Shown: positions 5,347 through 55,775 of the stretch, piece by piece
Numbering within the stretch: position 1 is the first letter of the stretch
How the letters are laid out: each line of letters opens with the position of its first letter
Assembly: GCA_965200295.1 (NCBI GenBank)
Contig: OZ241347.1
Span: 3,141,727 to 3,205,726 of the forward strand
DNA from: Gammaproteobacteria bacterium
GTDB lineage: Bacteria; Pseudomonadota; Gammaproteobacteria; Eutrophobiales; Eutrophobiaceae
Length of the DNA stretch: 64,000 nt
Direction of reading: 5' to 3'
Notes under the pieces: generated by a model
What the model was told of the DNA's origin: nothing
The model's database searches: none
Seen by the model: the letters and a program-made list of their open reading frames with translations, nothing else
Translations under genes and position numbers: made by a program

Positions 5347-5500
5347 GGTAACCTCTAAAAATGCCCTCCGTGGCACATAAACAGAGACGGAAACGAAAAA
5401 ATGCGATTTTTCGTTTCCTTCATTTTCAAGCACTTACGTGCTTAAAAATGGCAGCATATCCATAATGCTGCACGGGCGCCTCTAATTTTTAGAGGCGCCC
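5347..5500 (+). mobile_element. MITE-like five-hairpin repeat, full copy
   Basis: Ends ggtaacctctaaaaa ... tttttagaggcgccc. Flanked by TTAT at 5343-5346 and 5501-5504. Confidence 0.9.
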
Positions 5501-5553
5501 TTATCAATATCGGGAACAAGCTGCGCTTGTCCTCAGTTCAGGTTCTGTCAGCT

Positions 5554-6156
5554 TCAGCCGGTAAAAATCTGCTTTGCGATGTGGGCGCTTTTGTCCTGAA
5601 CCTTGCCGGCGCCGGACACGGACGCATCGAGCTCCTTGGAAATAGCCTTCAATTTCGTCATCAGTATCCGCAGGTCATTGCTCCACTTCTCGCGCAAGCC
5701 GTTGGCGGAAGTGATGTTGTAGTCCCATTCGCCCTTGGTATGATAATTGTCATGGGCTGTGGTATCGAGCTTGATATCCCATTCCTTGCAGAATGCCACG
5801 GTCTCGGCGTCCATTTCGGAGGCGTGACCATGGCCGCCGGCCTGCTGCTTGCTGATGCGCATCCTTTGCAGCGCCCGGTTCATCTCCTTGTAATGGTTCA
5901 GCTTATCCTGCACATCTCCAAGCCTGTCTTTGGTCAGCGTGCCGAATACCTGTGCGCGCTCGACAAACAACAGCCCGACCATGGAGTCGGTAGCCATCAG
6001 CTTGCCACCGACGCTGATGCCTTCCTCCGCAGCCGCCCCGACGGCGCCGCGCTCAGCGGAGCCGGTTTTTGCGGCGGCTTCTGCGCCTTGCGCCTGGGGC
6101 GTGTTCAGACTGGTGGCGGAGGCGCCAATACCGGCGCTGCTATCAATTGTCATCAA
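5554..6156 (-). CDS. Bsp22/EspA-like filament protein, paralog 2
   Basis: LLFVERAQVFGTLTKDRL aligns with MLFIERAQTYSSLVNDRL of 4389..4937. Shared FC...I and C-terminal KLK...LD.S motifs. Confidence 0.65.
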   Translation of the reverse strand: MMTIDSSAGIGASATSLNTPQAQGAEAAAKTGSAERGAVGAAAEEGISVGGKLMATDSMVGLLFVERAQVFGTLTKDRLGDVQDKLNHYKEMNRALQRMRISKQQAGGHGHASEMDAETVAFCKEWDIKLDTTAHDNYHTKGEWDYNITSANGLREKWSNDLRILMTKLKAISKELDASVSGAGKVQDKSAHIAKQIFTG

Positions 6157-6188
6157 TCAGTTCCTCATACCGGGCGCCCGCCAGCGTG

Positions 6189-8681
6189 CTACGTCGCCCG
6201 GTTGGCAAATGCTTCGACATCGGCGCGCAACTGGTACAGCTCCTCGGCGGTCAACGGCGCCGCCCCCTTGCCGGCGCCCTCCTGCGCCTGCAACAGGCGC
6301 TCGGCCAGCGCCTGCCCCTGTTGCAGCCAGTTCCTGACGCCTTGATCCTGATCCGGCGCTGCATCCAACATCCTTACATAGGCATTGTTTTTGCCCGAGG
6401 TGCAGTAATCCTTGAACGCGGCCGGCAGGTCTTCGCTATAGCGGCCTGTCAGGATCATGGGGGCAAGCTCCTCGAGTTGCTGCGACTGCGCCTGCCAAGC
6501 CGCAACGGTCTGCTCATGGCCCAGCCCGTACGCACCGTTGAGGCTCTCGGCCGGCAGATTTTCCATCCGCAACAACCCCTTGTTAAAATTTTCCAGCGCT
6601 GTCGGCAACCGCCGCAACGCCCGGTCGCCTTCTTCATCCGAGATAAATGCGGCAACCTGAGCGGCGCTGCGCTGCGGATTGACTATTTCATTCTCAATCA
6701 CCGCACGCGTGTGATTGACGGCATTGCGAAAACTGTCCAGCACGATGGCAATGGCTTGCGGGCTACCGTAGCCCGCCACCTGCGCCGCCGGCCACTCCTG
6801 CTCCAGGGCGGCCAGTTGCGTCCGGTAAGCATCCTGATATTCCGCCTCGAGCGGACGCGCGCCCTGATCGGCAACGGCATCCTGCAGCACGGTGCGCAAC
6901 AGGTTCACGGCGCGCTGCTTGTTGGCGTCGGACTCTGCCGGGTCATTGATAATGATCCCCAGGCACAGTCTGGCATTCTCCATACCGGCGCCGCGCAACG
7001 CCGTGCGCACCGGCGCGCCGGCAGTGTTCATTGCCACCCCACCCGGCGCCGCGTACACCTGTTTGGCGAGGTAATCGAGCATCTTCGAGGGCTGCAGCAA
7101 CGGGCTGCCCAGCAGCTGTTTGAGCTGCTCCGGCTGCTGAGCCCAATCCCGCTGAAATCGGGTTGCGCCCTTGATCCTGTTGTTGCGGTCGTAACCATCG
7201 ATAATTTTTCGCGCCAGACCAAAAGCCTGCAACAGTTCTTTTTCGTCGGCGGGAGATACATCCTCTCCCGCCGCCGCCTGTTCTTCCATCAGCATGATGG
7301 ATTCCCGGGTATTATCAAGATCGTAATTCATCTTGCCGCGGCCGGTGTCCGTCAGGTTGCGGTTGTAGGCCTTGATGTCGGGCAGGTTCGGGTCGGCGAC
7401 GCCAGAGGCGCTGTCCGCGGCGTTGTAGGTCTGGTCGCTTGCTCTGAGCTCGTGGCTTTTGACCTGCACCGGGTCGGCGGACCAACTCACATGCCGATCG
7501 GCGTTGGGCACATGCCGGTCGGCGTTGGCACTTTCCCCGTGCGTCGGCTGGCGCAACGCACCGGGCGGGGCTGCCGGCGCCGGCTTGCCCAGATTGAAAA
7601 ACTCACGCGTCTGTGCGGATAACTTTTCAGATAACCGGGGAGACAGCTCGGCGCCGTCGTCCAAAAAGCGGGCGACCTCATTCCCGGCTCGGGGTTCGCG
7701 TTCAACCGTGTCGCCGACAGCCGCGTCCGGCATTTCGAATCTGGCGCCCTGCGCGCCGTGCAGTTCCGCATCGTGTATGGCCGCCAGCATCGCCAGGTAA
7801 CCTTCTTTGAAGCGCCCGGCCTGCTCCTGGGCGACCTTGGTCAGGTCGGCCACCTGCGTCATCAGTTGCGCCATGCGGTCGGTGTTGGCGTTGCGCTCGC
7901 CTACCGGGTTGGCGGCTGCCTCGGCCTTCAACAGGGCGTCGAGCTGGCGTTGCTTTGCCAGCAATTCGGGCGGCTTGAGCAAGGCCTGTTCGACGCTGCG
8001 CAGCTCCTTTACCATCATGTCCGCCCGGCCTGAGATGAGGCCGTGCCGGAGGCGGCCGGCCGTGGTGTCCGTGGTGGCGATGTTGGCCGGCGGCATTAAC
8101 TCCCGGTCCTCGCTTAGCTGCGCATAAGCCATGCGCGCTTCCAGCCACGAGGCCTCGGAATAATTGCCGTCGGTGTTGGTCACCATGGCCGGGGTCATCA
8201 TCCATTTCTCCGGGTTCATCACCCGGTCGGCGATTTCCAGCCGGTCGCTGCGGCGTTGCGATACGGTCTGCGTAATGTCTGCGGCAAGCTCGGCGCCTGC
8301 CTGTGCCGTGATCTGCCCGTCGTGCAGCTTGCGCTGCACCTTGCGGTCAACCAGCGTTGCCAACTCCCGGTCCAGGTGCAGGTCCTGCTTGATCAACCCG
8401 GCAAAGTTTTTGATGCTGGTCGCGCGGTTTTCCTGCAGGTCTCTGGCGATGGCCTCGTAACGCTGCGCGCCCACGGCCGTTTTGATAAACCGTTGCGCCA
8501 TGCTGCCCTGGCTGACGCGCCCACTTTCAGCATAGGCCACCAGCTTGCCTCTCACGCCGCCGGAGACATGGCTGCGCACCAGCTCGCCCTGCTCATTGAG
8601 GCGCTCGCGAAAACCGGCGCCGAGCGCTTTTTGCAGGCCGTCGTAAGGTGTTTGCAGTGACGTTTGCGAGGTTATCGACAT
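6189..8681 (-). CDS. 830-aa orphan, probable T3SS effector (GVxGKLVA N-terminal domain family)
   Basis: Ser/Thr-rich N-terminus, downstream of a class I chaperone. FRERLNEQGEL...GGVRGKLVAY motif shared with 29182 and 52359 ORFs. Confidence 0.7.
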   Translation of the reverse strand: MSITSQTSLQTPYDGLQKALGAGFRERLNEQGELVRSHVSGGVRGKLVAYAESGRVSQGSMAQRFIKTAVGAQRYEAIARDLQENRATSIKNFAGLIKQDLHLDRELATLVDRKVQRKLHDGQITAQAGAELAADITQTVSQRRSDRLEIADRVMNPEKWMMTPAMVTNTDGNYSEASWLEARMAYAQLSEDRELMPPANIATTDTTAGRLRHGLISGRADMMVKELRSVEQALLKPPELLAKQRQLDALLKAEAAANPVGERNANTDRMAQLMTQVADLTKVAQEQAGRFKEGYLAMLAAIHDAELHGAQGARFEMPDAAVGDTVEREPRAGNEVARFLDDGAELSPRLSEKLSAQTREFFNLGKPAPAAPPGALRQPTHGESANADRHVPNADRHVSWSADPVQVKSHELRASDQTYNAADSASGVADPNLPDIKAYNRNLTDTGRGKMNYDLDNTRESIMLMEEQAAAGEDVSPADEKELLQAFGLARKIIDGYDRNNRIKGATRFQRDWAQQPEQLKQLLGSPLLQPSKMLDYLAKQVYAAPGGVAMNTAGAPVRTALRGAGMENARLCLGIIINDPAESDANKQRAVNLLRTVLQDAVADQGARPLEAEYQDAYRTQLAALEQEWPAAQVAGYGSPQAIAIVLDSFRNAVNHTRAVIENEIVNPQRSAAQVAAFISDEEGDRALRRLPTALENFNKGLLRMENLPAESLNGAYGLGHEQTVAAWQAQSQQLEELAPMILTGRYSEDLPAAFKDYCTSGKNNAYVRMLDAAPDQDQGVRNWLQQGQALAERLLQAQEGAGKGAAPLTAEELYQLRADVEAFANRAT

Positions 8682-8746
8682 GGCTTCTAACCGGGTTCGC
8701 AGCTATGATTACAGTTGTCTGTCAGCGCCTGCGGCCCGGCATGTAC

Positions 8747-55393: not shown

Positions 55394-55408
55394 GGAAAGT
55401 TTTTCAGG

Positions 55409-55437
55409 TTGCAACCGCTTGCCGAATATGTTACAAT
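55409..55437 (+). promoter_or_regulatory. Putative sigma70 promoter for the peptide precursor
   Basis: TTGCAA-17 bp-TACAAT, then GGAG RBS before ATG 55473. Confidence 0.55.
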
Positions 55438-55472
55438 CCGCCCCGCAATTCGCTAAAACCTGGGAGAAAATC

Positions 55473-55652
55473 ATGAAAGACAAAACTACGGTAGTTAAGA
55501 ACGATGTTGCAGAAGAACTGACTGAGGAAGAGGCAAAAGAAATCGCCGGCGGCAGGTCGGAGCCTCCCAGTGGCCAAGTCCATTCAAATTCGACTCTGGG
55601 CAGTAACCACGCGTACTATTCCACTGACGCCCCAGACCGGCCGTCGCGCTAG
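55473..55652 (+). CDS. Double-glycine leader peptide precursor (bacteriocin/RiPP-like)
   Basis: MKDKTTVVKNDVAEELTEEEAKEIAGG|RSEPPSGQVHSNSTLGSNHAYYSTDAPDRPSR. ELTxEExxxIxGG leader motif, upstream of a C39-peptidase exporter. Confidence 0.82.
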   Translation: MKDKTTVVKNDVAEELTEEEAKEIAGGRSEPPSGQVHSNSTLGSNHAYYSTDAPDRPSR

Positions 55653-55682
55653 CAAGGGTGCTTTCGGCAGTTTGAGATACTT

Positions 55683-55775
55683 TGCTGCACGGGCGCCTCT
55701 AATTTTTAGAGGCGCCCCTGTATTGATGTCATCCAGATAGTTTCAGATACTCGTGCAGCATAGTAATATGCTGCC
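55683..55775. repeat. Two facing partial MITE pieces (hairpin 5 and hairpin 4)
   Basis: tgctgcacgggcgcctctaatttttagaggcgccc (55683-55717) and cgtgcagcatagtaatatgctgcc (55752-55775). Confidence 0.75.

Follow-up and report, generated by a model that had tools for sequence, protein, structure and literature searches.

Why should a short non-coding repeat keep an elaborate fold while the sequence of its stems turns over completely? The question is raised by a 64,000-nucleotide stretch of a gammaproteobacterial genome (NCBI assembly GCA_965200295.1, contig OZ241347.1, positions 3,141,727 to 3,205,726; hereafter the window), in which an earlier note, made from the letters alone, had described a 151-bp repeat as a chain of five hairpins whose stems change on both arms together. 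We conclude that this repeat is almost certainly a non-autonomous transposon, namely a MITE (for miniature inverted-repeat transposable element), and that its fold has very probably been kept by selection on the element lineage.

Four full copies of the element are present in the window, at the positions and with the ends and target site duplications that the earlier note had reported. The copy at 5347..5500 (plus strand, 154 bp) is flanked by TTAT at 5343-5346 and 5501-5504 and scores 144.3 bits on R1, a covariance model described below; it has a degenerate 3' arm in its first hairpin and belongs to subfamily CACATAAACAGAG. That at 21549..21699 (minus strand, 151 bp; 184.7 bits) lies between two copies of ATAA, as read on the plus strand, at 21545-21548 and 21700-21703. 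The remaining two, at 24717..24867 (plus strand, 151 bp; 177.3 bits) and 39608..39758 (minus strand, 151 bp; 177.6 bits), carry TAAT and TTAA, respectively. Both ends of the element bear GGnnnCCTCTAAAAAT, and all four duplications are exact. More fully, the left end reads GG(TAA or GAA)CCTCTAAAAAT and the right end, as its reverse complement, GG(CCA or GCG)CCTCTAAAAAT, making up terminal inverted repeats of 16 bp in which a hypervariable triplet (nnn) differs between the left and right ends of one element.

The host genome is a single contig of 3.52 Mb with 57.8% G+C. A profile built from the four full window copies and run against the whole genome (E <= 1e-3) returned 391 matches, 137 of them full length and about 250 partial; the exact end motif occurs 225 times in forward and 219 times in reverse orientation, with its nearest partner 151 bp away in 56 cases. 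Among the 135 copies with placeable ends, 96 have a perfect 4-bp duplication and 27 have one with a single mismatch, compared to none of 135 when the next four nucleotides outward are taken as a control. The target consensus of this family, which we call family A, is A/T-rich, TTAW (TTAT 23, TTAA 16, ATAA 9). The element is non-coding, each of the three plus-strand frames meeting a stop codon within 58 nt. According to our own rough gene caller (2720 genes, 86% coding), every one of the 137 full copies is intergenic, and the spacers that they occupy (81 tandem, 31 divergent, 25 convergent) are distributed near the background.

Empty sites in related genomes support the same identity. Two orthologous sites were resolved and both proved empty: at the site of copy 5347, relative G010 has ...gccgTATcaatatcggg..., a single copy of the four base pairs with one substitution, where the host has TTAT-element-TTAT; at the site of copy 24717, relative G007 has an unbroken TAATG with a single TAAT, where the host has TAAT-element-TAAT. 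The latter site in G010 holds a different insert of 249 bp. Contigs assembled from short reads (four DNA runs of one study, window 5100-25050) are broken inside every copy, and none spans an empty site. By DNA similarity, 15 of the genus's 22 other species carry family A and 0 of 17 other families do, and a copy from the class-level set described below had no match in a plasmid collection. As an observation in its own right, copy 24717 sits exactly at the TAATG stop/start overlap of two genes, where the TAAT duplication restores the ATG start of the downstream gene; the upstream gene ends earlier in the host, at a TAG at 24698-24700, and the overlap is intact in G007.

The earlier note had seen no cognate transposase in the window. 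This holds for the Pfam domain DDE_Tnp_1, which has 14 matches in the genome and none in the window. An autonomous insertion sequence (IS) with related ends, whose identity to those of the MITE is partial, was found elsewhere in the genome. This candidate partner, a member of the IS5 family, is a single-copy element of 1280 bp (G000:C1:3432738-3434017, where G000 is the host genome) with ends GGCAACCTCTATAAAT and GGCACCATCTATTAAT; its transposase of 346 aa scores 281 bits on NF033581 (IS5 family, cut-off 140) and contains PF01609 and PF05598. Homologues with 76-81% amino-acid identity occur in 5 of the 23 genomes of the genus, including 12 copies in G018, 21 in G020 and 10 in G001. In G018 and G020 they have the ends (A or G)GGAACCTCTAT(T or A)AAT and the duplications TTAA, ATAA and TTAT, so that the end core and duplication are the same as those of the MITE. 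An IS5-family DDE transposase of this kind would mobilise the MITE in trans. The other DDE_Tnp_1 groups of the host genome were considered as partners and rejected, none having matching ends. Terminal inverted repeats, 4-bp duplications, high copy number, empty sites in relatives and an IS5-family element with matching ends together support the MITE reading.

Covariation within one genome and across the class

One copy of the element folds into exactly five hairpins, as the earlier note had proposed. They follow each other head to tail: in H1 the left end pairs with its own internal anti-copy, H5 repeats this arrangement for the right end, and H2, H3 and H4 are internal. The predicted RNA fold has a free energy of -80.4 kcal/mol (z = -13.0; 0 of 200 shuffles as good), and the DNA fold of the other strand one of -56.5 kcal/mol (z = -14.2). 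Each of the four pairs of stem variants quoted in the note is present. Among the host copies, the pair of columns 55:74 is TA in 66 and CG in 66, with 2 others; 57:72 is AT in 80 and GC in 53; 136:158 is CG in 67, GC in 42 and TA in 25; and 91:102 is GC in 90 and TA in 35, with the intermediate TC in 10. When all 1081 pairs of variable columns are ranked by mutual information, the top three are all stem pairs, and all ten variable stem pairs fall within the top 35.

Such associations could in principle reflect descent, a few subfamilies having each inherited two linked changes. Linkage of this kind does exist: columns 55, 57, 72 and 74 are mutually linked, and so are 125, 136, 148, 149 and 158. 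Nevertheless, stem pairs outrank all other column pairs, and the variable triplet of H5 alone exists in at least seven perfectly paired versions. Pair types present in fewer than five copies comprise 24 double changes, 23 of them Watson-Crick, where 0.42 doubles would be expected under independence, alongside 114 rare single-sided cells that are uncorrected mismatches in resident copies. The singleton copies that carry private double changes lie at a nearest-neighbour distance of 7-44, compared to a median of 4; such copies are therefore old, and compensation has accumulated over time in diverged lineages.

Comparison across genomes extends the pattern well beyond one family. Sister families with the same five-hairpin plan and different stems are present in relatives (family B in G004, G008, G001 and G020; families C and D in G024), those of families B and C being flanked by the duplications CTAA, TTAA and TTAG. 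Since an alignment of families A, B and C by MAFFT only had H3 and H5 out of register, we used alignments made with covariance models. The first model, R1, was built from three window copies with a structure of our own and served to align 37 copies (alignment A7). A second model, R2, was built from A7 and searched against 151 genomes that represent the class with one genome per genus; it matched over its full length (150-153 nt) in 29 of the 151, a tally that includes the host and the unpublished genome G165, whose sequence was left out of all further use. Alignment A9 comprises 23 copies from 21 of these genomes. Alignments made in this way lean toward the structure of the model, a bias addressed by a control in which the partners of each stem are slid along the alignment, which keeps the relatedness of the copies.

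In A7, 95.8% of stem cells are paired (78.3% in shuffled alignments), 40 of 57 pairs have changed on both sides (27.4 shuffled), and the covariation score is 0.456 (0.145 shuffled; 0 of 500 as high). In A9, pairing stands at 94.4%, compared to 70.7% in shuffled alignments and 38.5-47.0% with slid partners. As many as 54 of the 57 pairs have changed on both sides (29.6 shuffled; 18-26 with slid partners), and the covariation score reaches 0.625 (0.182 shuffled, 0 of 500 as high; at most 0.12 with slid partners). Paired changes thus far exceed both shuffles and slid partners; the note's proposal that structure is being maintained is strongly supported by the mutual information, the rare Watson-Crick doubles and the class-wide changes on both sides. 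Across the class the ends read GGAA(R)CTCTGA..., the duplications are TTAA, CTAA, TTAT and TCTA, and total length, the five stem lengths and loop sizes are all kept. The loops keep (A)TCC, with TCC in 22-23 of the 23 copies in H4 and 20-23 of 23 in H1, although every pair of the H4 stem varies. Arrays in G049, a genome of another family, such as locus L176 (G049:C1:2569120-2569523), consist of head-to-tail H1-H4 units without H5, with a period of about 124 nt; one array begins 12 nt past the stop codon of a gene, in the gene's own orientation.

With covariation found both within and across genomes, including 54 pairs changed on both sides over 21 genomes under a control that retains relatedness, descent alone is excluded, and we regard it as scarcely credible. 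The other account that would dispense with selection on the fold is mutational. Template switching from arm to arm at quasi-palindromes can generate compensatory-looking pairs, and short loops, such as those seen here, favour the process. It would fit the strictly Watson-Crick character of the pairs on both strands, and the slightly lower conservation of stems than of unpaired columns in A9 (mean consensus fraction 0.737 compared to 0.795) would fit neutral drift of the stems; the many uncorrected mismatches among resident copies, the 114 rare single-sided cells above, have also been counted in its favour. Template switching, however, cannot fix the number, order and lengths of the hairpins, a total length of 150-153 nt in 21 genomes and the loops while the stems turn over. 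In addition, a C-A mismatch in H3 is kept in most host copies, which argues against efficient correction, and the old singleton copies with private doubles show that rapid recent correction is not seen. As the whole explanation, template switching is therefore improbable, and selection is favored because loops, hairpin lengths and total length are conserved while stems turn over; arm-to-arm correction may still contribute as a mechanism.

What the fold may do

MITEs are usually viewed as decayed insertion sequences with a junk interior. Here, the interior is a five-hairpin module whose pairing, dimensions and two loop motifs outlast complete stem turnover in about a fifth of the sampled genera. 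Because the module survives this turnover, something besides the transposase reads the element, which makes it a testable case of a structured nucleic-acid module carried by a transposon. We tentatively favor a role at the level of RNA, and put its chances slightly below even: the element would be a cassette that folds tightly in either orientation. MITEs would land in transcribed spacers in either orientation, and a cassette folding tightly as RNA on both strands, in which every frame is closed by stop codons, the 5' and 3' stems are stable and no single strand lies open, would insulate the neighbouring genes. Such insertions would be tolerated and would persist as sources of new copies. The conserved loops, UCC on one strand and GGA on the other, we read as putative contact sites for a protein or the ribosome. 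In the host genome, the strand running from H1 to H5 is co-oriented with tandem flanking genes in 55 cases and opposed to them in 26 (p = 0.0017), a bias that holds for genes codirectional with replication (35:18) and for opposite ones (20:8), and the copies have no orientation bias with respect to replication itself (75:62, p = 0.31). The account as a whole, from an IS5-mobilised MITE to a selected fold acting in RNA, is the best explanation that we can offer, with roughly equal chances of being right or wrong, an estimate set by its least certain step, the RNA-level role.

A number of results weigh against this account. Stem columns carry only slightly fewer rare variants than unpaired ones (0.92 and 1.28 per column, respectively), so that the decay of individual resident copies is close to neutral. 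On either strand few cells, about 2%, are G-U pairs, an unusual feature in a functional RNA; if the fold were selected in both orientations, an intolerance of G-U on either strand would be accounted for, though this explanation is post hoc. The gene-orientation bias of the host was not reproduced in relatives, where 59 loci were considered after a further one, L209, from a set of 30, had been left out because of its position at a contig edge: the counts are 7:6 in G010 and 6:10 in G005, G018 and G020, or 13:16 pooled. A function as intrinsic terminators was rejected, since terminator-like tails, which families A and C have after H2 and H4, are missing from family B. With regard to mobility, the partner IS of the host is single-copy, no more than 13-14 of the 16 positions of its ends agree with the MITE, and it is itself flanked by TTAA and TTAT. 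Moreover, no IS5_4-type transposase scored above the cut-off in any of the five MITE-rich genomes tested (G010, G005, G007, G004 and G024). Orphan MITEs are common, so this absence weakens the assignment of the partner and does not refute it.

The main alternative places the role of the fold in transposition, at the level of DNA. The hairpins, as cruciforms or as folded single strands, would unite the ends of an element whose length does not exceed the persistence length of DNA and, since H1 and H5 pair the ends with anti-copies, a single strand would rebuild both transposase-binding duplexes. Much of the pattern is consistent with this: covariation is Watson-Crick only and symmetric between strands across the class (1200 Watson-Crick, 23 G:T and 28 A:C of 1296 cells in A9), relatives lack a gene-orientation bias and the host lacks a replication bias (13:16 and 75:62, as above), H1 and H5 are made of the terminal repeat and its complement in every family seen, the DNA fold has a z-score of -14, and 44-bp elements with only the two ends and the H1 loop, described below, carry 4-bp duplications of their own. 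Yet H2-H4 are not end-like and covary as strongly as H1 and H5, the nnn triplet that differs between left and right means that the arms do not just duplicate a single protein site, and the 44-bp elements are equally explicable as deletions in situ. An alternative bender, a central motif like that of integration host factor (IHF), is strict in only 4 of the 23 class-wide copies. We know of no IS5-family transposase that uses hairpin or single-stranded substrates, which further counts against a DNA-level role, and we consider such a role possible but rather doubtful. The IHF-consensus-like motif itself, WATCAANNNNTTR, lies in H3 at the centre of the element (e.g. 24789-24801), and a one-mismatch form of it is present in 96 of the 137 host copies. 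A bolder variant, in which the five hairpins would enable the element to move, or to survive, in single-stranded form, is less likely again. If true, one folded DNA strand would rebuild both duplex ends for the transposase within about a dozen nucleotides of each other, and a DDE-type MITE could be mobilised from, or integrated out of, the single-stranded DNA of replication, conjugation or transformation; this would explain the strict Watson-Crick pairing, the strand symmetry and the spread over the whole class.

The loops invite another reading, in which a transcript of the GGA strand presents two A(N)GGA(U)-loop hairpins that would be bound by Csr/Rsm proteins, making the copies putative mobile CsrA sites or sponges like the TwoAYGGAY RNAs. 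The minus-strand loops, ACGGAG or AGGAU in H1 and AAGGAU or AGGGAU in H4, are nearly invariant across the class, a csrA gene is present in the host genome (PF02599, 90 bits), and the sections of the Minerva preprint on the multi-copy TwoAYGGAY RNAs of Pseudomonas propose Csr/Rsm sponges with a mobile-element-like expansion (10.64898/2026.09.22.753630). Within the family, A:C mismatches exceed G:T on the plus strand (51 to 18 in A7, 91 to 40 in the host genome), as if wobble were tolerated on the GGA strand; this asymmetry, however, is not significant when counted by event (20:12 and 36:22), and it is gone class-wide, where no strand asymmetry is seen. The two GGA hairpins are also non-adjacent and without a common basal stem, flanking genes run along the GGA strand less often than along its complement (26 of 81 in the host genome), RF01731 does not match the element, and of 16 canonical TwoAYGGAY loci R2 recovers just 1, at 12.8 bits. 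We thus consider a Csr/Rsm-binding role unlikely, and retain the tightly folding RNA cassette as our preferred, if tentative, reading.

Short copies and an IS110-family element at the MITE end

Besides the full copies, the window holds six short or partial ones, two 44-bp solo elements and four fragments, where the earlier note had counted about eight. The solo elements lie at 21795..21838 (minus strand), with the left end and H1 fused directly to the right end and flanks CGAA and TGAA, and at 25321..25364 (plus strand), with the duplication TGAA/TGAA. A partial copy spanning H3-H5 lies at 30491..30572 (plus strand; profile positions 73-153, E = 3.6e-19, 56.9 bits on R1). Fragments with the end of H4 and H5 are found at 52293..52329 (minus strand; profile positions 116-152, E = 5.5e-6) and 55677..55718 (plus strand; positions 111-153, E = 3.4e-6). 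A weak match on the opposite strand, 55691..55779 (minus strand; E = 5.3e-4), has the palindromic H5 in common with the latter, with an H4-like hairpin about 40 nt off. Genome-wide there are 20 of the 44-bp mini-elements, consisting of both ends and the H1 loop only, and the majority have 4-bp flanking duplications; they resemble products of deletion between the TTTTTAGAG motifs that recur in H1 and H5. Near the full copy at 21549, a 1977-aa open reading frame (15537-21470, minus strand) has its start codon about 80 bp from the element.

Repeats of about 1.94 kb with MITE ends were considered as a possible autonomous element and proved to be MITE copies split by an IS110-family element. This element of 1786 bp has 10 full or nearly full copies with at least 99% identity, located outside the window (e.g. 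G000:C1 2993573-2995358, or positions 221-2006 of locus L030), and encodes a transposase of 422 aa of the RNA-guided type (260 bits on NF033542). All 10 copies are inserted in one orientation at CCTCTAAA^AAAAT (^, insertion point) inside MITE copies, five in the 3' arm of H1, four in H5 and one in the left end. The IS110-family element thus appears to use the MITE end motif as a specific target. The MITE copies constitute a natural target set for an RNA-guided recombinase of the IS110 family. A run of about 14 C directly adjoins one MITE/IS110 composite (L030 2055-2070; G000:C1 ~2995407-2995422).

Comparison with known systems

The element belongs to a superfamily of IS5-type MITEs that extends across the class, conserves a five-hairpin core and is apparently undescribed. 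The earlier note had allowed that it might match a family already described. At Rfam gathering thresholds the whole window gave no matches, and searches by E-value with one copy and with five sister copies produced nothing above chance level. No printed description of the family was found, supplements, a possible home of repeat catalogues, being outside the search; the strings of the end motif turned up only unrelated primers in the literature, and a term search of a 2024 review of prokaryotic MITEs found neither of the word stems 'covaria' and 'compensatory'.

The targeting of the MITE by the IS110-family element has a parallel in IS4321 and IS5075 of the IS1111/IS110 family, which likewise have a single insertion point and a single orientation within the terminal-repeat motif of a different mobile element. 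Their target is the 38-bp ends of Tn21-type transposons, whereas here it is the MITE end motif, of which each copy has three.

With respect to the MITE itself, Correia elements and repetitive extragenic palindromes (REPs) are obvious points of reference. Correia elements have a TA duplication and 26-bp Correia ends. The present element, with its 4-bp duplication and different ends, is therefore not a Correia element; it also forms five separate hairpins instead of one long terminal pairing, occurs in a different bacterial class and, for this five-hairpin MITE, deep covariation of the stems has been shown. The likeness is nonetheless appreciable, in that the Correia elements of Neisseria (CREE/NEMIS) are, in the sections consulted of PMC10969869, intergenic multicopy MITEs of about 150 bp with many inverted repeats, whose transcripts would fold. 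A central IHF-like motif, present in some of the five-hairpin families, is a further similarity. REPs and the bacterial interspersed mosaic elements (BIMEs) that they form are high-copy extragenic palindromes, and the MITE too exists in solo, composite and (in G049) tandem forms. REPs, however, have neither terminal inverted repeats nor target duplications, and the transposases linked to them are RAYT tyrosine transposases. Since the MITE has both terminal inverted repeats and target duplications, it is not a REP or BIME (a RAYT gene was not searched for).

A 4-bp target duplication is common to the MITE and the IS5 family, the MITE ends start with GG and match those of same-genus IS5-family elements at 12-15 of 15-17 positions, and sister families B and C insert at CTAA, TTAA or TTAG, in agreement with the target motif YTAR given for IS5 in the part of PMC5009759 that deals with it. 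Family A, in contrast, prefers TTAW to a strict YTAR, the conserved five-hairpin module in the interior shows no likeness to the 40 nt at each IS end, and many carrier genomes of the MITE are without the transposase.

TwoAYGGAY (RF01731) is likewise intergenic and multi-copy in Gammaproteobacteria, and one of its strands has hexaloops that contain GGA. The preprint cited above, in its sections on this RNA, describes an extended Pseudomonas TwoAYGGAY with three extra hairpins, five in all, which is multi-copy, swings in copy number and is of unexplained mobility (10.64898/2026.09.22.753630). Membership of the MITE was tried and rejected: RF01731 matched neither one copy (E <= 10) nor five sister copies (E <= 5), and its best score anywhere in the host genome was 26.8 bits, compared to a cut-off of 43. 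RF01731 exceeds this cut-off in 5 of the 151 class genomes, the host not being among them. In contrast to TwoAYGGAY, the MITE has its GGA loops in the first and fourth hairpins, H1 and H4, which two others separate, and it lacks a basal stem and a pseudoknot. It also has terminal inverted repeats and 4-bp duplications, on which the TwoAYGGAY sections of the preprint are silent, its text not containing the term 'target site'. The likeness is at most functional. At locus L110 (G092:C148:2606-2748), however, a canonical TwoAYGGAY match lies inside inverted repeats of about 25 bp whose core, CCTCTAAAC, resembles the end core of the MITE; this hints, by resemblance of sequence, that some TwoAYGGAY elements may also be IS5-type MITEs. 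The family described here offers a concrete mechanism of transposition with which the unexplained, mobile-like spread of TwoAYGGAY can be compared.

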